From an uncultured Bryobacteraceae bacterium (lineage in GTDB: Bacteria; Acidobacteriota; Terriglobia; Bryobacterales; Bryobacteraceae): a stretch of 46,594 nucleotides of DNA. Location: contig CAXTWT010000002.1 in NCBI GenBank assembly GCA_964247955.1, positions 1-46,594 on the forward strand. The letters are read 5' to 3'. The translations under genes and the position numbers were made by a program. Under the pieces are notes generated by a model that made no database searches, had not been told where the DNA came from, and saw only the letters and a list, made by a program, of their open reading frames with translations. Positions 12,825-43,439 of the stretch are shown here, in pieces. Within the stretch, counting starts at the first letter, position 1, and every line of letters starts with the position of its first letter.

Positions 12825-13226
12825 ATGAGTCAGAACCTGACGAGCCTACCGGAGGAACTGGTGCAACTGCAGCAACAGTTAGCGGAGTTTCGCAGCACGC
12901 ATCGCGTGCGCTCGCGCTTGCCGGAGCCGTTCTGGGCCGCCGCAACTGAAGTAGCCCGGCATTATGGCGTGCATCAAACGGCGCGGGTGCTGCACTTGGA
13001 TTACGTCGGCCTGAAGAAGCGCGTGGAAGGTCGGAAGCGACCGAAGCGAAAACGCACCGTTTCTCCTTCCGCGCCGACCTTTGTCGAACTGGTCGGGCCT
13101 GCTCCTGTGGCTGTTAGCTCCTGTCGGGTTGAGTTGGAAGCGACACCGGGCAAGCTGCGACTGGAACTACCCGCGCTGGAAGTGAATGAGTTGACCAGTA
13201 TTATTCGCACTTTCCTGAGCCATTGA
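12825..13226 (+). CDS. tnpA: IS66-family accessory protein TnpA (orf1)
   Basis: 133 aa in the position and of the size of IS66 orf1. It lies directly upstream of tnpB with a 3-nt gap. Confidence 0.75.
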   Translation: MSQNLTSLPEELVQLQQQLAEFRSTHRVRSRLPEPFWAAATEVARHYGVHQTARVLHLDYVGLKKRVEGRKRPKRKRTVSPSAPTFVELVGPAPVAVSSCRVELEATPGKLRLELPALEVNELTSIIRTFLSH

Positions 13227-13229
13227 CAC

Positions 13230-13616
13230 ATGTTGCAGATCACGCCGCACATGCGCATCCTGGTGGCGCTGGAGCCGGTCGATGGAAGAAAAGGTATCGA
13301 CGGACTTATTCGGTTGTGCCGGGAACAACTCCGCGCCGATCCGTTTTCGGGCTGCTTGTTTTTCTTTCGGAGTCGTCGGGCGACGTCGATTCGTATTTTG
13401 ACTTATGACGGCCAAGGATTTTTTCTGGCGCAGAAGCGCCTGTCGAAGGGACGATTCTCCTGGTGGCCGAACGGCTCCGGGCCAGCCCGTACGATTGAGG
13501 CGTATCAAGCGCAGTTGCTGCTCGCGGCCGGAAACCCCAACACATCAGCAGCCCCGCTTTGGCGTCCCGTCAATGGACCGGAAGCAACCAAGGATCGTGG
13601 TGAGATTTCCGGCTAA
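13230..13616 (+). CDS. tnpB: IS66-family accessory protein TnpB (orf2)
   Basis: 128 aa: MLQITPHMRILVALEPVDGRKGIDGLIRLCREQL..DPFSGCLFFFRSRRATSIRILTYDGQGFFLAQKRLSKGRFSWWP. This is the canonical IS66 Orf2 pattern. Confidence 0.9.
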   Translation: MLQITPHMRILVALEPVDGRKGIDGLIRLCREQLRADPFSGCLFFFRSRRATSIRILTYDGQGFFLAQKRLSKGRFSWWPNGSGPARTIEAYQAQLLLAAGNPNTSAAPLWRPVNGPEATKDRGEISG

Positions 13617-16730: not shown

Positions 16731-18266
16731 ATGAAACGTGCCCGACCACAAGTGGAGGTGAATCTGCCGGAGCTGGAGCAGATCCTGGAACAGGCGCGAC
16801 AGACTCCGCTGAACGAAGCAGATTATCAGAAGCTCAAGCATGCCTTGCACGCCTTAGTCGATTTGCTCAGGCCGGTGCGGAGTACCGAAAAAACCGAGAC
16901 CGTGTTAGCCGAAGCCATAGATCGAGCAGCGACGGAGCCAAACGTCTCCAGCGCCGAACAAAACTCACTATCCGGCCACGGGCGGAATGGAGCAGCGGCG
17001 TTCACCGGGGCACGAAAGGTGGAGGTGCGGCACGTTCAACTGCAGTCGGGCGACCGCTGCCCCGCTTGCGAAATCGGAAAAGTCTACCGCCAGAAAAAAC
17101 CCAAGCCGTTGGTGCGGATCATCGGACAAGCGCCGCTGGCGGCGACCGTGTATGAATTAGAACGTTGGCGCTGTAATGCTTGCGGCCAAATCTTTACTGC
17201 TGAGGAGCCGAAAGAAGCCGGACCAGACCGATATGACGAGAGCACGGCGGCGATGATCGCGCAACTCAAGTACGGCAGCGGCGTTCCGTTTTACCGGTTG
17301 GAGAAGTTGCAGGCCAGTGTCGGCATTCCATTGCCAGCCGCCACGCAGTGGGAAATCGTCGAAGCAGCGGCAGAAATCATCCAACCGGCGCTGGAGGAGT
17401 TGATCCGGCAAGGGGCGCAAGGCGAGGTGCTGCACAACGATGACACGCGGATGCGGGTGTTGCGTCTGGCCCGCGAGCCGTCGGACGAACGCACAGGTGT
17501 CTTCACCAGCGGCATTGTGTCCACCCGGCAAGGACAACCGATCGCACTGTACTTTACCGGGCGTCAGCATGCCGGGGAAAATCTGGCCGACGTGCTCCGC
17601 GAACGCCAGGCGGAGCTGCGTCCACCCATTCAGATGTGCGACGCCCTATCGCGCAACATTCCGAAACTGCCAAGCGGTGTGGAGGTGTTGCTGGCAAACT
17701 GTTTGGCGCACGGCAGAAGGCAGTTCGTGGACATAGCCGCAAACTTTCCCGCTGAATGTCGTTATGTGCTGGAGCAAGTCGGCCGTGTCTATGGCTATGA
17801 AGCGGAGGCTGGTGATCGCCAGTTGACCGCTGCGGAGCGACTGCTCTTTCATCAGCAGCATAGCGGTCCGGTGATGGAGGAACTGCACCACTGGCTGGAA
17901 AACCAACTCGCGCACAAGAAAACGGACCCGAACTCCGGACTGGGCAAGGCGATCACGTATTTATTGCGGCATTGGCAGCCCCTCACCCTGTTTCTGCGGG
18001 AGAAAAACGCTCCCTTCGACAACAACCTTGTCGAAAGAGCCTTGAAGCGGGCGGTGTTGCATCGGAAAAACGGTCTCTTCTATCGCACCCTGCACGGAGC
18101 CGAAGTGGGCGACTTATTCATGAGCTTGATCCACACGTGCGAACTCTGCCGGGTCAACTCCTTCGAGTACCTGACCGAACTGCAGCGCCACGCGCAGGAA
18201 CTGGCCACGGAGCCAGCCCGTTGGATGCCGTGGAATTACCGGAACACGCTGGCGCAGAACGCCTGA
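16731..18266 (+). CDS. tnpC: IS66-family transposase TnpC (orf3)
   Basis: 511 aa with an N-terminal coiled-coil/leucine-zipper region, a zinc-finger (CPACEIGKV...WRCNACGQIF), and a DDE core (HNDDTRMRVL...MCDALSRN...CLAHGRRQF...NNLVERALK). Confidence 0.93.
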   Translation: MKRARPQVEVNLPELEQILEQARQTPLNEADYQKLKHALHALVDLLRPVRSTEKTETVLAEAIDRAATEPNVSSAEQNSLSGHGRNGAAAFTGARKVEVRHVQLQSGDRCPACEIGKVYRQKKPKPLVRIIGQAPLAATVYELERWRCNACGQIFTAEEPKEAGPDRYDESTAAMIAQLKYGSGVPFYRLEKLQASVGIPLPAATQWEIVEAAAEIIQPALEELIRQGAQGEVLHNDDTRMRVLRLAREPSDERTGVFTSGIVSTRQGQPIALYFTGRQHAGENLADVLRERQAELRPPIQMCDALSRNIPKLPSGVEVLLANCLAHGRRQFVDIAANFPAECRYVLEQVGRVYGYEAEAGDRQLTAAERLLFHQQHSGPVMEELHHWLENQLAHKKTDPNSGLGKAITYLLRHWQPLTLFLREKNAPFDNNLVERALKRAVLHRKNGLFYRTLHGAEVGDLFMSLIHTCELCRVNSFEYLTELQRHAQELATEPARWMPWNYRNTLAQNA

Positions 18267-34004: not shown

Positions 34005-34204
34005 TTTCCCACTACTGATGGCACACGTCGACGTATAGGCAGGGATGAAGTCACTCTGGCAGGCCGACTTTCCTGTGTCTGTTAGTTACCCCAGGGTGCT
34101 TGGACTGGCAAGAATTCCGACTGTGTCCTGGCACAGCGGAGAACAGTCCCGATACCCGTCGCTCTCCCGGTAACGTTATCCTTGTTATCCTATATAGCAG
34201 AACC

Positions 34205-34564
34205 GTGTTTCGTGCGTTCGCCCATTTGCTTCTTGTGTTGCTGCTCGTCACCACTCTGGTGGGGGGCGGCTGCCTTTCCTGTGAACAGTACTTTATGTTC
34301 GGAGGGCCGAAGAGCTGCTGTGCGCCCAATGGGCGTTGCAAAACGAAAGCTCCTGTAAAAAACGGCTTCGGTCGCGACTGTAAGCAGATCACTTTCGACC
34401 ATCAAAAGGGGATGGATCTTCCTTTTGATCTGCCGGTGGTGACCGTTGGCAGAAGGGAGCTACCTGTTTCCAGGACCAACTTTTTCCCACGCTGGTACGA
34501 AACGACCTCCGTCGCCCCCTCGCCCCCTGACTTGCAAGTCTTGCATTCCACCTTCCTGATTTAG
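34205..34564 (+). CDS. Small N-terminally anchored Cys-rich protein (uncharacterised family; paralogue of 41356..41730)
   Basis: Probable GTG start. It reads FRAFAHLLLVLLLVTTLVGGGCLSCEQ...SCCAPNGRC...DLPFDLPVVTV...LQVLHSTFLI*. Its architecture and C-terminus parallel the ORF upstream of the multicopper oxidase. Confidence 0.5.
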   Translation: MFRAFAHLLLVLLLVTTLVGGGCLSCEQYFMFGGPKSCCAPNGRCKTKAPVKNGFGRDCKQITFDHQKGMDLPFDLPVVTVGRRELPVSRTNFFPRWYETTSVAPSPPDLQVLHSTFLI

Positions 34565-34660
34565 TTTCTCCTTTCCACCCTCGACGAAGCGCTGGCAGAC
34601 TTGCGTCTACGCGTTTTGGCCTGCCACTTCGGCGGGCCAAAGCAAGGAAAGGAGAAATCT

Positions 34661-35518
34661 ATGTTGTGTTTCCGTACGACTCCGTGGGCGGTCGTAACCA
34701 TGGCCATGCTCGCGGTAGCGTTTCCTCTGGGTGCTGCCGATCATGGGCCGGTTTTTGGGCTGGCGACCCCGACCAATCCCCAAGGAGGGTGGAGTTTTGA
34801 TTTGGGTGTCAACGGGCGAGGGGGCACCAGCGGCATCAGTTCAACGCTGGAAGCAGAACTCACCTACGGTGTCACCCAGAACCTGAAGCTGGCCGTGTCC
34901 GCGCCGGTCGTGCTTCAGCCTGACCCCTACCCCCGTTCGTCCGTCACCATGAACACTCCCCTCAGTGGGGATTTCAGTGGCTTGGCCTGGTGGCGATTTC
35001 AGAAAAAAGATTTAGCGGGTAAGCGAGTGGAAAGTACCGTCGTAGGTGGCATCCTCGTCCCGGGGCCGCAGCCGGAAGACGGAGTCTATCGGGGCCTCCA
35101 CAGCGGCGTGGGATACCTGGTGGGCGGGGTAACGGGCGTGGCATCCCGCAGTCACTATGTGTGGGTCGGCGCCAGCTACCAGCGGTACGCGGAATCGCAA
35201 GGCGACCGCCGTCCCGATCTGCTCTCCTACACAGCAGTCTACGGTTATCGACCTCTCTCCTGGCGCACGGATTATCCACGTTGGGATTGGCGCCTCTTCG
35301 GGGAGCTGACCGGAGAGCACACCGGGACACTGCAGCGGCAAAGGATCGAGCTGCCCGGCAGTCGTGCCAATCAAATCTTTCTCGGCCCGAGCCTTTTGGG
35401 CGTTTATCGCGACATCGGCATCGAAGCCGGAATCCAGTTTCCCGTGTACCCCAATGTCGGGCCGCTCTACCCCCCCGAGCGCTACCGCTTCGCCCTCAAC
35501 TTTGCCTACTTCTTTTGA
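34661..35518 (+). CDS. Outer-membrane beta-barrel protein (possibly MetA/phenol-degradation-type channel family)
   Basis: ATG is preceded by aaggaaaggag. Signal peptide MLCFRTTPWAVVTMAMLAVAFPLGA, amphipathic strand pattern, and a C-terminal ..YRFALNFAYFF. Confidence 0.65.
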   Translation: MLCFRTTPWAVVTMAMLAVAFPLGAADHGPVFGLATPTNPQGGWSFDLGVNGRGGTSGISSTLEAELTYGVTQNLKLAVSAPVVLQPDPYPRSSVTMNTPLSGDFSGLAWWRFQKKDLAGKRVESTVVGGILVPGPQPEDGVYRGLHSGVGYLVGGVTGVASRSHYVWVGASYQRYAESQGDRRPDLLSYTAVYGYRPLSWRTDYPRWDWRLFGELTGEHTGTLQRQRIELPGSRANQIFLGPSLLGVYRDIGIEAGIQFPVYPNVGPLYPPERYRFALNFAYFF

Positions 35519-35530
35519 AAGGAATTTACA

Positions 35531-36031
35531 ATGCGAAAAAGACTCTCATTTCTCGTTTGTGCGCTCCTGGTAGCTGCCCTTCCAGGGCAGGCCGAGTTAC
35601 TGCAAGTGGATCTATCTATTTTCGGCATGGATTGAATGACCTGCGCCCACGTGGTCCACGTGGCATTAAAGAAAGTGCCGGGGGTGGAATCGGTCGAGGT
35701 GAGCTTAAATAAGGGGCTTGCGACCGTGAAGTTGAAGCCAGGGAATACCGTGGCCGTCCCACAATTCTGGCAACTGCTCCATGAGAAGGGATACACGCCG
35801 AAAACAACGGCGGTTTCCGTCCGGGGAGAACTGGCGGAGGGGCCGGGACACGTTCAACTGAGGGTGACGGGAACGAAAGATACCCTGGCGCTCGTAGCTG
35901 ATCCGAAGAATCCCGCCGCATATAACGAAGTTTCTAAGAAACTCGGCCAGACCGTCACTCTGCAAGGCGTGATGGTGCCGGGCAAGGACTTGAAAGCGGC
36001 CACGCCGCTTCAGGTCAGTCAGGTGAAGTAA
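35531..36031 (+). CDS. Periplasmic MerP-like heavy-metal-associated (HMA) protein with in-frame TGA at the first metal-binding Cys (candidate selenoprotein, or pseudogene)
   Basis: MRKRLSFLVCALLVAALPGQA (signal peptide) ELLQVDLSIFGMD-[TGA 35633-35635]-MTCAHVVHVALKKVPGVESVEVSLNKGLATVKLKPGNTV..LLHEKGYTPK aligns column for column with MerP (TVTLSVPGMTCSACPITVKKAISKVEGVSKVDV...). The ORF track only sees 35636..36031. Confidence 0.7.
35647..35663 (+). other. SECIS-like hairpin 11 nt downstream of the in-frame UGA
   Basis: CCACGUGG-U-CCACGUGG. Pairs are C35647-G35663, C-G, A-U, C-G, G-C, U-A (and possibly G-C), with an apical GGUCC/GUC loop. G35645-C35664 can extend the stem with one bulged C. Confidence 0.55.
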
Positions 36032-36043
36032 AGGAAAAAATAC

Positions 36044-36469
36044 ATGCAATCCAGTGTGAACACTGCCCCGCTGCGCATCCGCAACGGGGCGCTCAGTTAT
36101 CTTTCGCTTTTTACATCGCTCAGTACGTTACTGTGCTGCGCTCTACCTTCCTTGTTCGTGCTGTTCGGACTCGGGGCTACGGTGGTCTCGGTACTGTCGG
36201 CGGCTCCGTGGCTGGTCACGATGTCCCATCACAAACATTGGGTGTTCCTCGGGGCAGGTCTTCTGATCTCCGGCAACTTCGTTTATGTTTACGCCGTTGC
36301 CCCGAGACTGCAGGCAAGAAACGGGGCCTGCGACCCCAACGACCCCGCCGCCTGCCGGACGGCCAGCCGGTTCAGCCGAATCGTGCTTTGGTGCTCGGCG
36401 GTTCTCTATCTGATCGGCTGCTTTACCGCGTACCTGCTCGGACCGCTTCTGATTCGCTTCGACTCGTAA
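36044..36469 (+). CDS. MerT-like three-TM metal transport protein
   Basis: 141 aa. TM1 carries the vicinal pair LLCCALPSLFVLFGLG (MerT: STCCLGPLVLVALGF). A second Cys pair, GACDPNDPAAC, lies in the loop before TM3 (MerT: QACKPGEVCA). Confidence 0.7.
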   Translation: MQSSVNTAPLRIRNGALSYLSLFTSLSTLLCCALPSLFVLFGLGATVVSVLSAAPWLVTMSHHKHWVFLGAGLLISGNFVYVYAVAPRLQARNGACDPNDPAACRTASRFSRIVLWCSAVLYLIGCFTAYLLGPLLIRFDS

Positions 36470-36533: not shown

Positions 36534-37745
36534 CTAATAAATCACGAGAAATCCACGCGGCTGGGCTACCACCGCGCCGAAGCTCCAGGTCGGCACCCCC
36601 GCTGCCGATGCCTTCTGCCCGATGGGTTTGCCGTTCGCATCGTAGAGCTGCCAGGCCAACGAGCCGCCGCGAGCCCAGCCCGTCGCCTCGGTCCAGACCA
36701 GCAGCGTTGTGCCGTCCGCCTCACTCGCGAGGCGCGGGTGTTTGTGGCCCTTCCTCTCTCCCGGTGCGCTGCCGGGAGTGGCGGTTTTATCGGTGAGATC
36801 GGCGAAGTAAACCTGCCCGCCCGTTTCCCATGCTCCTTTGATGCGGCCCGCCGCTTCCGAAAAGGCCATGCTGCTCATCGGGCAGGCATTTACTTCCCAG
36901 GGGTGCAGCATTCTTTCTTCAAAACTTCGGGCCTGATCGGAGGAGGTGAGGAGATAAATGTCACGGTGAACGTTGTCCGTGGCCGATCGGTACAGGATGC
37001 GCACAACTCCCTTCGCATCCACCTCCATGGCCATGCCGCAACACCCGCAGGCACCCGTGGGTTCTTTCCCAGCGGCCCGCTCGACCGTGAACGTTTTTCC
37101 GTCGTTGTTCGAGCGAGCGATCCATACTTGTCGTCCGGCTTCTCCCGCCGCCGCGCCGGGCGCTTTGCCCTGCCACACCACGTAGACATAACCAGTTGTA
37201 TCCGCCGCCAGGGTACCGCCGCCATCGAGACCAAAGGTATGGGTCATCAAGTTGCGTTCCGGCTCGAACGCCGTACGCGCATCGTTGAGGCGGCTATAGA
37301 GCATCGGTGCGCCGGGTTGTCCCGATTCAGAGTTGACTGGTCCTTTCGGTTCTGCTTGCGAGGAACCATTCCAGGCAACATGAACCCGGCCGTTTCTGCC
37401 GATGGCGAGCTGGCCGCCACGAATGGTGCCGACCGCCATCGCCGTACCCGCTTGGCTATTGACACGCAGCGGAGACGACCAAGTGCGGCCCGCATCAGAG
37501 GACTGGACATAGAACAGGTCGCCATGCGCCGGATCTCCCGCATAGTAGAGTAAGTGCAGCGTGCCGGAGGAGTCCCTCACCGCTTGCGGCTGAATCCCGC
37601 CATTCGGGACACGGAGGAGGGAGACGTTTGTCGTTCCAGGTCGATCCGGAAAAGCAGCAAATAGGGACACCGGGCCCAGCACCAACGAAACAACTCTCAT
37701 GAACATCACAGTTTTCAGCGTGGCTCTGTCCTTTGGGTTTGTCAT
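36534..37745 (-). CDS. Secreted BNR/Asp-box beta-propeller protein (sialidase-like fold)
   Basis: Signal-like MFMRVVSLVLGPVSLFAAFP (alternative start near 37706). Asp-boxes are SSDAGRTWS, SNNDGKTFT and SSDQARSFE. There is an unusual Cys cluster TGACGCCGMAM. Confidence 0.7.
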   Translation of the reverse strand: MTNPKDRATLKTVMFMRVVSLVLGPVSLFAAFPDRPGTTNVSLLRVPNGGIQPQAVRDSSGTLHLLYYAGDPAHGDLFYVQSSDAGRTWSSPLRVNSQAGTAMAVGTIRGGQLAIGRNGRVHVAWNGSSQAEPKGPVNSESGQPGAPMLYSRLNDARTAFEPERNLMTHTFGLDGGGTLAADTTGYVYVVWQGKAPGAAAGEAGRQVWIARSNNDGKTFTVERAAGKEPTGACGCCGMAMEVDAKGVVRILYRSATDNVHRDIYLLTSSDQARSFEERMLHPWEVNACPMSSMAFSEAAGRIKGAWETGGQVYFADLTDKTATPGSAPGERKGHKHPRLASEADGTTLLVWTEATGWARGGSLAWQLYDANGKPIGQKASAAGVPTWSFGAVVAQPRGFLVIY

Positions 37746-37801: not shown

Positions 37802-40528
37802 TCACAGCTTGGCCTTTCGCAAGCGCAAGGCGTTTACAATGACTGATACCGAACTGAAGGTCATCGCGGCGCTTGCGATCATCGGGCTGAGCAGAATGCC
37901 AAAGAAGGGATACAGAACTCCCGCCGCAATCGGGACTCCCAGCACGTTGTAAATAAAAGAGAAGAACAGATTCTGGCGAATGTTGCGCATGGTCGCGCGG
38001 CTTAAGCGGAGCGCGCGCGCCACGCCGCGCAGATCACCTTGCACAAGCGTAACCCCGGCGCTTTCCATGGCGACATCGGTTCCCGTGCCCATGGCGATGC
38101 CGATATCCGCTTGGGCCAGAGCCGGAGCGTCGTTCACGCCATCTCCGGCCATCGCCACCACCTGACCAGCTGCTTGCCGTTTTTTGACCGCTTCCGCTTT
38201 TCCTTCCGGCAACATCTCTGCTTCCACATCGTCGATGCCTAGACGTTGGGCGACCGCCAGCGCCGTGGTCCGGCTGTCCCCGGTGAGCATGGTCAGGCGC
38301 ACTTTTTCGCGATGCAGCATTGCCACGGCTTCGAGCGTAGAAGACTTGATCGGGTCAGCCACGCCGACCAAGCCGGCGGGCTGGCCGTCTACCGCCACCA
38401 GCATCACTGATTGCCCTTCGGAGCGGAGTTTCTCGGCTTCCGTCGATAAGCCGTCAGTACGGATGCCGAACTGCTCCAGCAAGGCGCGGTTTCCGAGCAA
38501 AACCAGATGACCGTCCACGGCGCCCCGGACTCCTTTGCCGGTCAGCGAGGCAAATTCGGTCGCCTTGGGCAGGGTGAGATGCCGTGCCTTTGCCCCACTG
38601 ACAATCGCTTGCGCCAACGGATGTTCGCTCGCCTGTTCGAGACTCGCCACGAGCGTGAGTAGTTCGTTTTCCTCACCCGCCTTTGATAACGAAAGAACCG
38701 TGGTCAGTTTGGGTTTGCCTTCGGTTAACGTGCCCGTTTTGTCCACCACGAGCGTGTTCATTTTCTCCAGCCGTTCGAGCGCTTCCGCATTCCGCACCAG
38801 CACACCGGCCGTCGCGCCGCGGCCGGTGCCGACCATGATGGACATCGGCGTAGCAAGTCCTAAGGCGCAGGGACAGGCGATAATGAGCACCGCGACGGCA
38901 TTGACAAAGGCATGGCCGAGACGCGGTTCCGGTCCCCAGAGTGCCCACGCCGCAAAGGTCAGAACAGCGGCCAACACCACAGCCGGAACAAAATAGGAAG
39001 CCACGGCATCCGCCAAGCGCTGAATCGGCGCGCGGCTCCGCTGCGCTTCGCTTACGAGACGCACGATCCGGCTTAAAAGCGTATCACGGCCGACGCGTTC
39101 GGCTCGCATCAGAAAGCTGCCCGTTCCATTCACGGTGCCGCCAGTGACGCGCGTGCCCGCCGTTTTCTCGACCGGAATCGGTTCACCGGTCATCATGGAC
39201 TCATCGACGGAACTATTTCCCTCGGTCACCGCGCCGTCTACCGGGACCTTTTCTCCGGGACGAACGCGCAGGGCGTTGCCAATCTGGATTTGTTCGAGGG
39301 GCACGTCCCGTTCTTCACCCGAGGCGTCCACCACCCGAGCGGTTTTCGGTGCCAGACCCAGGAGGGACTTCAAGGCGCTGCTCGTTTGGCTACGGGCGCG
39401 CAACTCCAGAACTTGGCCTAGCAGAACCAGAGTCACAATCACCGCCGCCGGTTCAAAATAAAGAGGTACTTGGTCCGCATGAACCCGGAACGAGGCGGGA
39501 ATCACAAAGGGGAAAAGCAGGGCGACAAGACTGAACAGATAGGAAGCGCCCGTTCCCAAGGCAATCAGGGTGAACATGTTCAGATGACGGTTGACCACCG
39601 AAGCCCAGCCCCGCTCGAAAAACGGCCAGCCGCCCCACAGCACGATGGGGGTCGCCAAGGCAAATTGCAGCCAGCCCGTTAGGATGGTCGAAAGCCGGTG
39701 CGCTCCCGGAATCATGTCAAGAACCATGAAAATCAAAAGGGGAGCGGTCAGGAGGGCGCTGATCCGGAGCCGTCGAGTCATATCGGCCAACTCGGGATTC
39801 ACTTCCTCTCCGGTGACTTCGCGCGGCTCTAAGGCCATTCCGCAAATCGGACAAGAACCGGGCTCACTCCGCACAATTTCGGGGTGCATAGGGCACGTGT
39901 ATTCCGTGCGAGTGGCGGGCAGCTGAAAGGTCGCGGGCTCAAGCGCCATGCCGCACTTTGGGCAGGCGCCCGGCTCCCGCCGGCGCACCTCCGGGTCCAT
40001 GGGACAGGTGTACTCAACATCTTGTGTGCCAGCCGGGGCCGCACTCGCCGCTGTCTCGGGTGCTAAATACTTCTCGGGACTTATTTTGAATTTGTCGAGA
40101 CAGGAGGAACTACAAAAGTAGTACCGCGTTCCTCCGTGCTCGACCGTGCCGACAGCATCCTGCTCCTCGATATCCATCCCGCAGACAGGATCGTGATGAA
40201 GAACCGGAGTGGTCTCCGCCGCTGGCTTTGCGACCGTCTTTGCCCCTCCACGCAGGGGAACAATCGTTTGCTTCGCTGCCTGCTCGTCTCCGCAGCCACA
40301 TCCACAATGACTCTGGCCTACCACCGGAAGCGCCGAGGAGCGGTTGACATAGTGAGCTGGATTCTGTTCAAACTGCTGCCCGCAACGCGGACAGCAGAAG
40401 TAATAGTCCTTGCCTTCATAGCTGACATGACCAGCCGCTGTCTTTTCCTTCACCAGCATCCCGCAAACGGGATCTTGGAGAGCTGGCTTTTGCGCGACGT
40501 TCATAACCTTCTCTTTCCAGGCATCCAC
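37802..40528 (-). CDS. copA: Copper-translocating P1B-type ATPase with YHS/TRASH and CPxxP..CPxCGM N-terminal metal-binding domains
   Basis: 908 aa with TGEP, CPC ([13 protein letters not shown]), [17 protein letters not shown] and MLTGD motifs. The N-terminus has two PVCGM...YYFC..C...F...P modules and two YTCPM(D/H)PE...CP.CGMALEP modules, and no ferredoxin-fold HMA domain. Confidence 0.95.
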
Positions 40529-41355: not shown

Positions 41356-41730
41356 ATGAATCGGCGCGGCATACAGTTGGTTGTTCTTCTGTTGGTGACG
41401 GCTTTGTTTGCCGGCTCCCAGTGCCTTGCTTCGTGCCTCCTCGCAGCAGAAGCGAGCCCTTCTCCCTGTTGCCATCAGCATTCCCATTCGCATCCAGGAA
41501 AGACGGATCAGCATTGCGGGCAGCAACACCCGCCGTACTTTAGTCCCGAGCATACGGATGATCTGGAGAAAAGTAGCTTTGCTTCGACAGCCGGGTTGCC
41601 CTTTCCGGTCACAGTCTCCTCGGCGCAGGCCCTCACCAGCACGTTCTTTCATTCTTGGGGGAGCCTAGGGGAGCGCGGGGTGTCTCCCGGTGCAAGCATC
41701 TATCTGTCCTTATCCACTCTGCGCATTTAG
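41356..41730 (+). CDS. Small N-terminally anchored Cys/His-rich protein (paralogue of 34205..34564)
   Basis: MNRRGIQLVVLLLVTALFAGSQCLASC...SPCCHQHSHSHPGKTDQHCGQQH...GLPFPVTVSS...IYLSLSTLRI*. It sits immediately upstream of the multicopper oxidase. Confidence 0.6.
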   Translation: MNRRGIQLVVLLLVTALFAGSQCLASCLLAAEASPSPCCHQHSHSHPGKTDQHCGQQHPPYFSPEHTDDLEKSSFASTAGLPFPVTVSSAQALTSTFFHSWGSLGERGVSPGASIYLSLSTLRI

Positions 41731-41864
41731 ACTTCTTTCCCTATCACTTTTATTAGGCGCTCGGTCCGGCTGACACCGCTGTGCGGAGCCATGCCGAGGC
41801 ACCGGGGCGAATTACGCCTTGCTTTCGTATTGAATTCATCAGATTGGAAGTGGGAAAGAGAATT

Positions 41865-43439
41865 ATGAGTCATCGTCGGAATTTTTTTCGAAATACGTTC
41901 GGTCTGGGAGCCGGGTTGTTCTCGCTCTCGCAAGCCGGTGCTGCCCAGGAAGGGCATGACAGGCGGCAGCATCAACAGATGCAAAGCACCGCAGCGGAGA
42001 AGTTGAAAGACAGCCAAGCAGCAGGTCCCTCGGTCCTGGTACAAACTCCCGATTTGAAGGACTTGCCTTTCACTGTGGATAACGGCGTGAAGGTATTTCA
42101 CTTGATTGCAGAACCAGTGCGGCAACAGATTGCGCCGAATAAAACCATTGATGTTTGGGGGTTCAACGGCAGCGCGCCGGGACCCACCATTCAGGTGACG
42201 CAGGGAGATCGCGTTCGCATCATCTTCGATAATCATTTGCCCGAGCCGACCTCCATGCACTGGCATGGTTTTGAGATTCCCATTAGCATGGACGGAATGC
42301 CGGGCATTAGCCAGGACCCGGTCAAGCCGGGGGGACGCTTTGTGTACGAATTCACCCTGCACCAGGAGGGAACGTATTTCTATCACTCGCACTTGGCGAT
42401 GCAGGAAATGATGGGTATGTTGGGCGCGTTCATCATGCATCCCAAGGTGCCTTATGCGCCTCAGATCGACAAGGACTTCGTCATCATGCTGCAAGAGTAT
42501 GCGGTGTTACCGAACAATACGGTGCCGAACACTATGAATATGGAGTTCAACTGGCTCGTGTTCAATGGAAAAGCCGCTCCCGCTACCACTCCCTTAGTGG
42601 TGAAATTGGGAGATCGCGTCCGAGTTCGCCTCATTAACTTAGGAATGGATCACCATCCCATTCACCTGCATGGCCACACCTTCTACGTCACCGGAACCGA
42701 AGGGGGACGGATTCCCGAATCGGCTTGGTTCCCCGGCAATACTGCCCTGGTGGGTGTCGCGCAGTCTCGCGACTTTGAATTTGTGGCGAATAACCCAGGA
42801 GCCTGGATGCTGCACTGTCATCTGCCGCATCACATGATGAACCAGATGTCGTCGAATGTGGGGCCGATGTCGCGGATGGGCCGGGGTATGCCAGCCGGTG
42901 TCGACATGAATAATGGCATGGGCATGCTGAACGGCACGCCCGGAGCTCCGGGCGGCGAGGATTACGGCCCCAGTCTGGGTCGTGGCTTAGGGGTAGGTTC
43001 GACGAACGATCAACCGGTTGCTAATACCCCGCTTTCCCCAGAGAAAGCAAGGGCGGCGATGCAGGGAATGCAGCATGACATGGCCAGCATGCCGGGGATA
43101 GATCACAGCAAAATGGGCGGCATGAGTGGCATGGACCACAGCAAAATGGGCGGCATGGAGCACGGCGGCATGAACATGGATCTGGGCGACGATGTGGCCA
43201 AGAACGCCAACAGTGTGCCCGGCTTCCCGCAGGACGCCTATATGGAAGGTCCCATGATGAACATGGACAACCTGGTCGTGAGACCGCAGAACTACGGTTT
43301 GCGTCCGGGCTGGAGCGGCTTCATGCAGGGAATGATGAGTTTTGTGCGCGTACTGCCTCCGGACGAGTACGACCAGGTGATGGAGCAAATGCGCCAAGGC
43401 TTGCCGATGACTATGCCGGGCATGCAGCACTCGATGTAG
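41865..43439 (+). CDS. Multicopper oxidase (CopA/PcoA-like) with Tat signal and Met-rich C-terminal region
   Basis: Twin-arginine signal MSHRRNFFRNTFGLGAGLF. Copper ligand motifs are HWHG, HSH, HPIHLHGH and HCHLPHHM. The Met/His-rich stretch is MPGIDHSKMGGMSGMDHSKMGGMEHGGMNMD. Confidence 0.93.
   Translation: MSHRRNFFRNTFGLGAGLFSLSQAGAAQEGHDRRQHQQMQSTAAEKLKDSQAAGPSVLVQTPDLKDLPFTVDNGVKVFHLIAEPVRQQIAPNKTIDVWGFNGSAPGPTIQVTQGDRVRIIFDNHLPEPTSMHWHGFEIPISMDGMPGISQDPVKPGGRFVYEFTLHQEGTYFYHSHLAMQEMMGMLGAFIMHPKVPYAPQIDKDFVIMLQEYAVLPNNTVPNTMNMEFNWLVFNGKAAPATTPLVVKLGDRVRVRLINLGMDHHPIHLHGHTFYVTGTEGGRIPESAWFPGNTALVGVAQSRDFEFVANNPGAWMLHCHLPHHMMNQMSSNVGPMSRMGRGMPAGVDMNNGMGMLNGTPGAPGGEDYGPSLGRGLGVGSTNDQPVANTPLSPEKARAAMQGMQHDMASMPGIDHSKMGGMSGMDHSKMGGMEHGGMNMDLGDDVAKNANSVPGFPQDAYMEGPMMNMDNLVVRPQNYGLRPGWSGFMQGMMSFVRVLPPDEYDQVMEQMRQGLPMTMPGMQHSM

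Follow-up and report, generated by a model that had tools for sequence, protein, structure and literature searches.

A widespread four-gene cassette of soil Acidobacteria with a predicted HMA-domain selenoprotein, a distant MerT-like protein and a probable CutF/CopL-like leader

The cassette and its features

We analysed a stretch of 46,594 nucleotides from an uncultured Bryobacteraceae bacterium (assembly GCA_964247955.1, contig CAXTWT010000002.1; hereafter the window), concentrating on a cassette of four genes at positions 34205 to 36469. An initial annotation, made from the sequence alone, had described four co-directional open reading frames (ORFs) with gaps of 12 to 96 nt at this place and had read them as a MerP/MerT-like pair coupled to an outer-membrane (OM) barrel and a Cys-rich anchor protein. 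The layout was found as described: the gaps between genes 1 and 2, 2 and 3, and 3 and 4 are 96, 12 and 12 nt, respectively, and all four genes run in the same direction. The features of the cassette are listed below.

34183-34191, plus strand: extended -10-like element TGTTATCCT (TGnTAnnnT), 13 nt upstream of the gene 1 start
34205-34564, plus strand: gene 1, GTG start, 119 amino acids (aa), small Cys-rich protein, predicted to be exported or anchored
34565-34576, plus strand: anti-Shine-Dalgarno (anti-SD) arm TTTCTCCTTTCC, beginning directly after the gene 1 stop codon, perfect complement of 34646-34657
34646-34657, plus strand: Shine-Dalgarno (SD) region of gene 2, GGAAAGGAGAAA, sequestered by the anti-SD arm
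34661-35518, plus strand: gene 2, 285 aa, signal peptide, C-terminal FALNFAYFF, predicted 12-stranded OM β-barrel
35531-36031, plus strand: gene 3, 166 aa including selenocysteine (Sec) 35, predicted secreted selenoprotein with a heavy-metal-associated (HMA) domain
35633-35635, plus strand: in-frame UGA of gene 3, read as Sec in FGMD-U-MTCAH, where U replaces the first Cys of CxxC
35647-35663, plus strand: hairpin resembling a selenocysteine insertion sequence (SECIS), 6-bp stem 35647-35652/35658-35663 with loop GGUCC, 11 nt after the UGA
36044-36469, plus strand: gene 4, 141 aa, three transmembrane (TM) helices, predicted inner-membrane protein, distant member of the MerT superfamily

Conservation of the four genes

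Related loci were collected in a scan at one genome per species, in which 307 genomes had a relative. Eighty loci from different species (L002-L081) were kept, each with a flank of up to 10 kb. Genes 1 to 4 recurred together in these 80 species-level loci, and their order and spacing were constant in close relatives (tblastn). The counts of the parts rest on tblastn; a census by regular expressions missed short fragments before the UGA and frameshifted long-read metagenome-assembled genomes (MAGs). All-against-all clustering of the ORFs within ~9 kb gave only four families common to the loci, those of the cassette with their antisense shadows, and the next most frequent ORF family occurred in ~11 of the 80 loci. 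The recurrence of the four genes in 80 loci is far beyond chance. Chance ORFs on either strand were considered and rejected, as the overlapping antisense ORFs clustered solely as shadows of the four genes.

The four parts also stayed together where their order or sequence had changed. The order is gene 1-gene 4-gene 2-gene 3 in L085, and the equivalent of gene 1 lies downstream of gene 4 in L069. A divergent gene 1 (…CCKKMAGDC…CC…PPPAPPG.NSILRI) was found in L065, L066, L072, L078, L079 and L081. Furthermore, L083 and L087-89 encode a small Cys-rich secreted protein, a barrel of 212-215 aa, a CxxC HMA protein and a MerT-like protein, the gene 4 product of this type sharing ~35% identity with that of the window. 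A four-part composition that outlasts the loss of gene order is strong evidence of functional linkage. The initial annotation had raised the question of whether the quartet is conserved in relatives; it is, and this co-conservation survives gene-order shuffling in the distant ones. Judged from these sequence comparisons, the pattern is best explained if the four genes form one self-contained operon that is real and widely conserved in soil Acidobacteria. Terminator-like sites were no commoner at the cassette than in shuffled sequences.

The element TGnTAnnnT was found 8-14 nt 5' of the aligned GTG, TTG or ATG start of gene 1 in most related loci (~40). When the 400 nt upstream of gene 1 were aligned for 44 loci, nothing was conserved beyond this -10-like element, and no regulator or operator site was seen; a consensus promoter scan did not flag the element. 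We regard it as a putative promoter element of the operon's own. The start region of gene 1 (34183-34207 and its equivalents) showed no obvious SD sequence. Since the -10-like element lies 8-14 nt from the start codon, the leader would be very short or absent, and the mRNA of gene 1 may be leaderless or nearly leaderless.

Two side observations concern the mobility and copy number of the cassette. One MAG (MFD00031.bin.2.181) carries two complete copies on two contigs (L037 and L040), which points either to a binning artefact or to paralogues that may differ in metal specificity. In addition, at least six loci have tRNA genes no more than ~2 kb from the cassette (L012 11565-11791, L023 8019-8095, L056 10555-10631, L071 10788-10864, L072 7796-7871 and L079 7999-8073). 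Together with the unrelated flanks elsewhere, these tRNA genes hint that the cassette moves as a small island.

The HMA-domain protein of gene 3

The gene 3 product matched the Pfam HMA domain (PF00403) with 45.7 bits, above the cut-off of 24.8. Against the MerP equivalog (TIGR02052) it scored 40.9 bits, below the cut-off of 92.55, and it also stayed below the cut-offs of CopZ, UxxU_metal_bind and MerT_CopZ_Se; the scores were 45 against a cut-off of 95 for NF041115 and 19 against 375 for NF045683. The mature protein is ~145 aa long and contains the motif GMD-U-x-x-C. Its C-terminal half (residues 96-166, 35816-36031) forms a conserved β-rich domain of ~70 residues, for which no Pfam or PDB sequence match was found, the PDB matches covering the HMA part only. 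This domain could dock on the barrel or on the MerT-like protein. A distant Cys-type HMA homologue in L090 (152 aa) carries a similar C-terminal extension.

The in-frame TGA was present at the same position in 74 of the 80 loci, or in 76 of 82 sequences when the window and the near-identical L001 were counted. Six loci had no TGA: three are cut by contig ends, one is degraded, and two have another layout with a downstream Cys-type HMA gene. The 34 codons before the TGA, which encode the signal peptide and the first β-strand, were conserved, and so was the HMA sequence downstream. The SECIS-like hairpin was strongly maintained, with 98.7% of the cells paired among 63 distinct sequences and compensatory changes in five of the six base pairs. 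Its covariation score was 0.40 versus 0.16 in shuffles (0 of 500 reached it), and slid controls were 18-53% paired. The G and U of the loop were invariant, and the covarying positions alter amino acids in concert, e.g., CAHVVDVAL versus CAFAVRGAL. The rule of an 11-nt spacing between UGA and SECIS comes from E. coli fdhF. A scan of the window with Rfam found no known RNA and no match for the hairpin. Homologues with Cys at the Sec position were seen in L083 (GLVCDFC), L087 (GVVCDFC) and L090 (GMYCQLC). The genes selA, selB and selD and the tRNA-Sec were found neither in the window nor in the 60 loci scanned for tRNAs (ARAGORN); Acidobacteriota are a phylum known to use Sec and to have selenoproteins. 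The HMA protein with a UGA codon that the initial annotation had pointed out thus stands, and, by its conserved UGA and covarying SECIS hairpin, it is a predicted selenoprotein.

Reinitiation at the ATG that follows the UGA was rejected as an explanation: distant loci have GGA, GAG, GCG or GAA as the next codon, and the product would also lose the signal peptide, the first strand and the first ligand. Public gene calls nevertheless start gene 3 at this post-UGA ATG (35636-36031 in the window and 622-1017 in L001, 131 aa), and these truncated calls lack the Sec ligand together with the signal peptide and the first strand. The truncation hides the family in databases, and the whole gene 3 selenoprotein family is probably mis-annotated there. 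Prokaryotic selenoproteome reviews (2022 and 2026) list MerT-type selenoproteins, P-type ATPases with UxxC and the UxxU protein NF041115, and a secreted HMA UxxC protein or PF00403 was found in neither of them. Haft's preprint speaks of only 'a small set' of MerT-related selenoproteins.

The MerT-like protein of gene 4

The gene 4 product contains LLCCALP in TM1 (C31-C32), the pair C96-x7-C104 before TM3, and C117 and C126 in TM3. Its topology was read from the sequence, and the orientation of the loop as cytoplasmic is predicted. Members of the close family are 75-89% identical, with C31, C32, C96, C104, C117 and C126 invariant. In a broad alignment of 57 members, the CC of TM1 and the Cys pair of the loop were nearly invariant, and the loop was rich in Arg and Lys. 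The relatives number 2732 at 90% clustering, mostly from Bryobacteraceae and other Acidobacteriota of soil metagenomes, and a profile search of 1.8 billion representatives gave 679 clusters at 50% identity. The Joint Genome Institute (JGI) often names these homologues 'mercuric ion transport protein'.

Comparison of the broad family with Tn21 MerT by hhalign gave 93.8% (E = 1.8e-7 over 94 columns), and 14 of the 57 family representatives matched PF02411 singly, with a best E of 2e-8. The window protein itself had no Pfam match at E <= 1 and scored 12.4 bits against the NCBIfam MerT model (NF010314), for which the cut-off is 150 (E = 0.13). The Cys placement of MerT, as the initial annotation had noted, is present in gene 4, and the protein is MerT-like at the superfamily level only. 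From these profile comparisons we assign gene 4 to a distant branch of the MerT superfamily.

The outer-membrane barrel of gene 2

An AlphaFold2 (AF2) model of the gene 2 product, built from a 30-sequence alignment, was a 12-stranded barrel with a predicted local distance difference test score (pLDDT) of 65 and a predicted template-modelling score (pTM) of 0.66. Foldseek searches of the PDB with this model returned FapF (template-modelling score ~0.6), the COG4313 channel (~0.55), NanC and Tsx. The scores against the FapF and COG4313 structures (5o68 and 4rl8) were 0.52-0.66 at 12-15% sequence identity, for a model with a pLDDT of 65. Gene 2 belongs to no Pfam or NCBIfam family, and its 972 homologues are all named hypothetical. 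An N-terminal segment, HGPVFGLATPTN, was invariant. The OM β-barrel that had been proposed from the C-terminal signature is thus consistent with the model, by which gene 2 is a 12-strand OM barrel with no finer assignment.

The N-terminus of the mature barrel deserves a separate remark. In the stretch 34730-34760 (residues 24-32), the mature protein would start, after a likely A-x-A site, with X-X-His, followed by the invariant HGP[VL]FGLATPTN. The starts are ADH in the window, SGH in L066 (8630-9487), NEH in L069 (4017-4889) and SGH in L085 (592-1524). If the signal peptidase cuts there, this start would resemble an amino-terminal Cu(II)- and Ni(II)-binding (ATCUN) motif. Distant barrels have a His-rich tail after the last strand (…FQHQHAK or …FQHGHSH), and the HMA protein of L083 likewise begins with ADHSHEH after its signal peptide.

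Gene 1 and the stem between genes 1 and 2

The gene 1 product has Cys residues at positions 23, 26, 38, 39, 45 and 59. In the alignment, a hydrophobic N-terminus runs into GGC-x-S-C-EQYFM, after which come CC and two single Cys; the middle part varies, and the C-terminus, PSPPDLQVLHSTFLI, is invariant up to the stop codon, with the PP at residues 107-108 of 119. The last 15 residues are kept as protein, since as many as four or five synonymous codons occur at their Ser, Pro and Leu positions. Neither Pfam (at E <= 1) nor NCBIfam nor the PDB gave a match, and the AF2 model (pLDDT 54) was poor except for the N-terminal helix and showed no fold. The iterative hidden Markov model for gene 1 stalled at 54-55 loci; the divergent forms were recognised by their position and C-terminal motif, and such equivalents are present in the distant cassettes.

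The junction of genes 1 and 2 holds a stem that sequesters the SD sequence of gene 2. In the window, the intergenic fold had an energy of -51.1 kcal/mol (z = -4.65), and 0 of 200 shuffles were as good. In all 31 loci in which both ends of the intergenic region could be located, the SD was paired, in the minimum-energy fold, with bases among the 25 nt that follow the stop codon; the median z was -2.85. Pairing was better between the two arms of one locus than between arms of different loci, with -16.2 kcal/mol for a locus's own arms, versus -13.5 for the arms of other loci and -9.7 for shuffled arms, and 0 of 10,000 partner permutations reached the observed mean pairing. Stop-adjacent anti-SD arms of quite different sequence were also present in L066, L072, L081 and L083, and such pairing was not seen in the AT-rich L087.

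The combination of a small Cys-rich exported protein and a shielded downstream SD recalls CutF of Rhodobacter capsulatus, CopL and CruR. These proteins are small, are exported by the Sec pathway and carry a Cys motif as well as a PP motif near the C-terminus (PMC9973294). With CutF-type proteins, translation pauses in a metal-dependent manner, and this opens the stem-loop that hides the SD of the following gene; in the case of CutF the metal switches translation on (PMC9973294). Cys-rich CutF-like proteins mostly occur upstream of copper genes, and the published screen for them used a length below 150 aa, a signal peptide, a PP in the last 15 residues and a short intergenic region (PMC9973294). 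Gene 1 shows all of these operational features, its signal peptide being judged by eye. Among 27 members of the gene 1 family, only the distant L083 protein touched CopL_fam (E = 0.0038), still below the cut-off.

A second gene 1-type ORF was found in the window outside the cassette:

41356-41730, plus strand: second gene 1-type ORF, MNRRGIQLVVLLLVTALFAGSQCLASC…CCHQHSHSH…LSLSTLRI, directly upstream of a multicopper oxidase gene (41781-43439)

Its N-terminal part aligned with the gene 1 family in hhalign (49.5%, E = 1.7e-4), and together with the multicopper oxidase it forms the canonical cutF-cutO or copL-copA arrangement. The folded stretch in front of the oxidase gene, whose true start is probably a downstream ATG with a Tat signal, showed no clear SD-sequestering stem.

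Gene 1 could instead be a working part of the system, so that all four proteins are structural: an anchored or lipidated Cys-rich metallochaperone would accompany the barrel, and the stem would be an ordinary coupling that sets stoichiometry. SD sequestration relieved by the terminating ribosome of the upstream gene is indeed a known device of translational coupling that needs no sensing. Gene 1 is co-conserved with the other three genes, its Cys cluster is invariant, and its hydrophobic N-terminus ends directly in Cys, which makes an uncleaved anchor or an atypical lipobox possible. However, a variable middle followed by an invariant 15-residue PP tail that runs to the stop codon is a CutF-like pattern, unlike that of a folded chaperone, and AF2 found no fold. 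A gene 1-type ORF in front of a multicopper oxidase, as with cutF and copL, also speaks against a structural role. The gene 1 equivalent downstream of gene 4 in L069 fits neither this explanation nor the sensor model cleanly. On balance, we consider it unlikely that all four proteins are structural.

Gene 1 is probably, as far as its sequence pattern tells, a CutF/CopL-like metal-sensing leader that controls translation of the barrel gene and not a member of the relay. The initial annotation was correct in describing a small Cys-rich protein with CxxC and CC..C; the anchor or relay role that it gave to this protein is the less likely one, a cis-acting sensor being the better reading. A sensor function of gene 1 would account for the lack of any regulator gene that accompanies the cassette.

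Genomic neighbourhood and mercury genes

The other large ORFs of the window encode, by Pfam, a CopA with YHS and HMBD domains, a CsoR-type repressor (PF02583), a multicopper oxidase, two efflux systems of the resistance-nodulation-division (RND)/Cus type, a ClC channel, an OEP-family OM efflux protein, a cytochrome c, and transposases of the IS66 and IS6 types. The transposase genes, IS6-type (DDE_Tnp_IS240) and IS66-family (TnpB and transposase), lie at 692-1189, 12825-13616 and 16731-18266 amid the two RND/Cus-like operons, and the window looks like a mosaic metal-resistance island. In the CopA-type P1B ATPase (37802-40528, minus strand), two YHS/TRASH domains and two HMBD (CPxC-type) repeats replace the classical HMA N-terminus. 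Just downstream of the cassette, a BNR/sialidase-like β-propeller protein is encoded at 36534-37745 (minus strand); relatives with 45-47% identity occur in L003, L032 and L036, which may be a coincidence or a loose association.

The copper genes under a CsoR-type repressor, which the initial annotation had stressed, are present but particular to this genome, the flanks elsewhere being heterogeneous. The nearest true neighbours on each side (131 proteins from the 80 loci) fell into 156 Pfam families, of which the commonest occurred five times and MerR-family regulators three times, and no functional enrichment was found among these 131 immediate neighbours. In other loci, the cassette is not accompanied by the CopA, CsoR, ClC and multicopper oxidase found in the window, so that the copper context here is incidental.

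The likeness of genes 3 and 4 to MerP and MerT raises the question of whether they belong to a split mercury resistance operon, in which they would feed Hg(II) to a MerA encoded elsewhere under a distant MerR. The remote homology of gene 4 to MerT, its matching Cys placement and the JGI names of many of its homologues agree with such a role. However, a tblastn search of the 46.6-kb window with Tn21-type MerR, MerT, MerP, MerC, MerA, MerD and MerE gave no match, nor did a MerB query, and Pfam found no mer gene among the other large ORFs; the absence of merA and merR from the window, which the initial annotation had noted, was thereby confirmed. Furthermore, neither merA nor merR was found by tblastn within +/-10 kb of the cassette in 79 of the 80 loci, so that the nearby merA-merR pair that would have made this a split mer operon is missing there, and the neighbours are enriched for nothing. 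A 2021 survey found MerA in only 7 acidobacterial genomes, versus at least 307 species-level genomes with the cassette, which makes a hidden merA unlikely as a general partner.

The exception among the 80 loci is L069, the sole locus with a merA-like sequence beside the cassette. In this Candidatus Acidiferrales MAG, a canonical-looking mercury set (4-2410) lies ~3 kb upstream of the cassette. It is made up of a MerT-MerP fusion, a three-Cys MerR, a second MerR-family gene and a merA-like fragment that carries an HMA domain at its N-terminus. MerR-family genes also occur near four further distant loci. These cases favour a link with mercury resistance; however, L069 has a separate MerTP beside merA, so that the cassette is not the transporter of that operon, and the cassette has a cis-regulatory device of its own. 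Judged from the window, the +/-10 kb flanks and the survey, a split mercury resistance operon is improbable.

Proposed mechanism

We think it somewhat probable that the cassette encodes a self-regulated pathway by which a thiophilic metal travels between cell surface and cytoplasm. Transcription of the operon would start at a promoter of its own, shortly before gene 1. The barrel of gene 2 would admit a thiophilic metal cation to the periplasm, where the Sec/Cys site of the secreted gene 3 HMA metallochaperone would capture it, with Sec as the first ligand. By analogy with MerP and MerT, ligand exchange would then pass the metal from gene 3 to the TM1 Cys pair of gene 4 and on to the Cys pair of the cytoplasmic loop; the cassette encodes no ATP or proton coupling. 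The MerT homology and the invariant Cys pair of the cytoplasmic loop argue for inward transport.

Expression of this route would be set by gene 1. Its Cys cluster would sample periplasmic metal during export while the invariant PP-containing C-terminal peptide sits in the ribosome, and the dwell of the ribosome at the gene 1 stop codon would decide whether the anti-SD/SD stem melts and hence whether the barrel gene and the operon are translated. Such a device would stand in for a MerR-type regulator. If the metal switches translation on, as with CutF, the system would be defensive; if it switches translation off, as proposed for CruR, the system would scavenge metal with high affinity, a role to which the use of Sec would be suited.

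As to the substrate, copper is somewhat favoured over mercury, and Hg(II) as well as divalent ions of the Cd/Zn/Pb type are possible. The usual position of Cys-rich CutF-like proteins before copper genes, the context of the window and its gene 1-type leader ORF in front of a multicopper oxidase hint at copper, and the ATCUN-like X-X-His start of the predicted mature barrel hints at copper or nickel.

Several points weigh against this interpretation. The hints at the substrate conflict. The motif GMDCAAC is the Zn/Cd/Pb-type site of ZntA, and the invariant Asp of GMD-[C/U]-x-x-C recalls ZntA, for which weak NCBIfam matches were obtained; the MerT ancestry of gene 4 and the L069 cassette 3 kb from a merR-merTP-merA set point to mercury instead. 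Import of a toxic metal without an encoded cytoplasmic acceptor is physiologically unexplained, and transport, its direction and its substrate are argued from analogy. At the protein level, the window gene 4 fails every curated MerT model, and a narrow gene 4 profile reached only 16% against MerT in hhalign. Confidence in the barrel model is moderate (pLDDT 65), and the folds that it matches are those of 12-strand barrels in general. Gene 1 matched neither DUF2946 (Pfam) nor CopL_fam (NCBIfam), and its structure could not be modelled. Moreover, the stop-adjacent SD-sequestering stem equally fits plain translational coupling without stalling or sensing.

An outward or periplasmic route, in which the Sec-HMA protein sequesters the metal, the barrel releases it like the little-understood CopB/PcoB and the MerT-like protein serves as a dock or signalling partner, would suit a cassette that encodes no cytoplasmic acceptor, lies in the window in a metal-efflux island with insertion sequence (IS) elements and, with the polarity of CutF, would be metal-induced, which suits defence better than acquisition; however, it is very improbable, as there is no energy-coupling component, the invariant Cys pair of the cytoplasmic loop argues for a hand-off to the cytoplasmic side and, to our knowledge, MerT-family proteins are known only as importers.

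We tentatively propose, with somewhat less than even confidence, that the cassette represents a hitherto unrecognised envelope-spanning system for acquiring or handling metal in at least 300 soil Acidobacteria species, which depends on selenium through a new family of secreted HMA selenoproteins, is switched at translation by its own exported nascent-chain sensor and uses no transcription factor.

Implications

Three of the four proteins belong to no curated family and the fourth is mis-called, its Sec codon being read as a stop, so that an abundant system of a dominant soil phylum is invisible in annotation. If our interpretation is correct, the cassette adds a selenoprotein family with Sec as a periplasmic metal ligand, and MerT-type transport would be widespread outside mercury resistance. 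Gene 1 would be a second, independently evolved-looking case of extracytoplasmic metal sensing by a nascent exported protein, and the CutF-type mechanism would reach a further phylum and act on a new class of target genes (barrel, Sec-HMA protein and MerT-like importer). In metagenomic surveys of soil Acidobacteria, 'merT' and 'merP' matches without merA should not be taken as a sign of potential mercury resistance.

Comparison with known systems

The initial annotation did not recognise the combination of these genes as a described system; likewise, our literature search found no description of a barrel, a Sec-HMA protein, a MerT-like protein and a leader together. Parts of the cassette nevertheless resemble known systems. 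Among known structures, FapF and the COG4313 channel (Pput2725) come closest to the gene 2 model; they are similar in size and also have a conserved N-terminal segment before the barrel. However, the identity is 12-15%, gene 2 matches neither Pfam PF13557, the family of such channels, nor its relatives, the substrates (amyloid subunits and hydrophobic compounds) are unrelated, and the likeness may be that of a generic 12-strand barrel.

In CopB-CopC-CopD and PcoB-PcoC-PcoD, an OM barrel, a periplasmic metallochaperone and an inner-membrane importer are encoded together in metal-homeostasis loci. The cassette is comparable to them by analogy of function only; its protein families are not related to theirs, and it has neither a multicopper oxidase nor a two-component regulator.

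Known metal selenoproteins, such as P-type ATPases with UxxC, MerT-family proteins, NF041115 and the MerT/CopZ fusion-like NF045683, share with gene 3 the replacement of a metal-ligand Cys by Sec, and selenoproteome reviews link HMA- and MerT-type selenoproteins to heavy-metal handling. In contrast to these, the Sec of the cassette belongs to a free-standing, secreted HMA protein of two domains, and no Sec occurs in the MerT-like partner.

The regulatory part resembles CutF (cutFOG), CopL (Xanthomonas copLAB) and CruR (Bordetella): gene 1 is below 150 aa, has a signal-like N-terminus, a Cys cluster and a PP in the last 15 residues, and stands first in a metal-homeostasis operon, with an intergenic region of less than 100 nt in which a stem shields the next SD. 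It differs from them in its Cys motif, which is CxxC...CC...C...C and not CxxxC, and in its longer and different C-terminal motif, PSPPDLQVLHSTFLI. The downstream genes for a barrel, an HMA protein and a MerT-like protein are also different, none of them being named as a neighbour type in the main text of PMC9973294, and so is the phylum, Acidobacteriota.

The transport part is closest to MerT-MerP of Tn21 and Tn501. In both, a periplasmic HMA protein adjoins a remotely homologous three-helix protein with Cys pairs in TM1 and the loop, and ligand exchange is presumed to proceed without energy coupling. However, the cassette has the P component before the T component and no merA, merR or merD. 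Its HMA protein is twice as long and carries GMD-U-x-x-C instead of the GMTCxxC of MerP, whose mature domain has ~72 aa, and its transporter does not match the curated MerT models and carries two additional Cys residues in TM3. In addition, an OM barrel and a leader protein are present. The cassette is thus best read, by analogy, as a MerP/MerT-like system that would extend to the outer membrane and would be regulated like cutFOG or copLAB.

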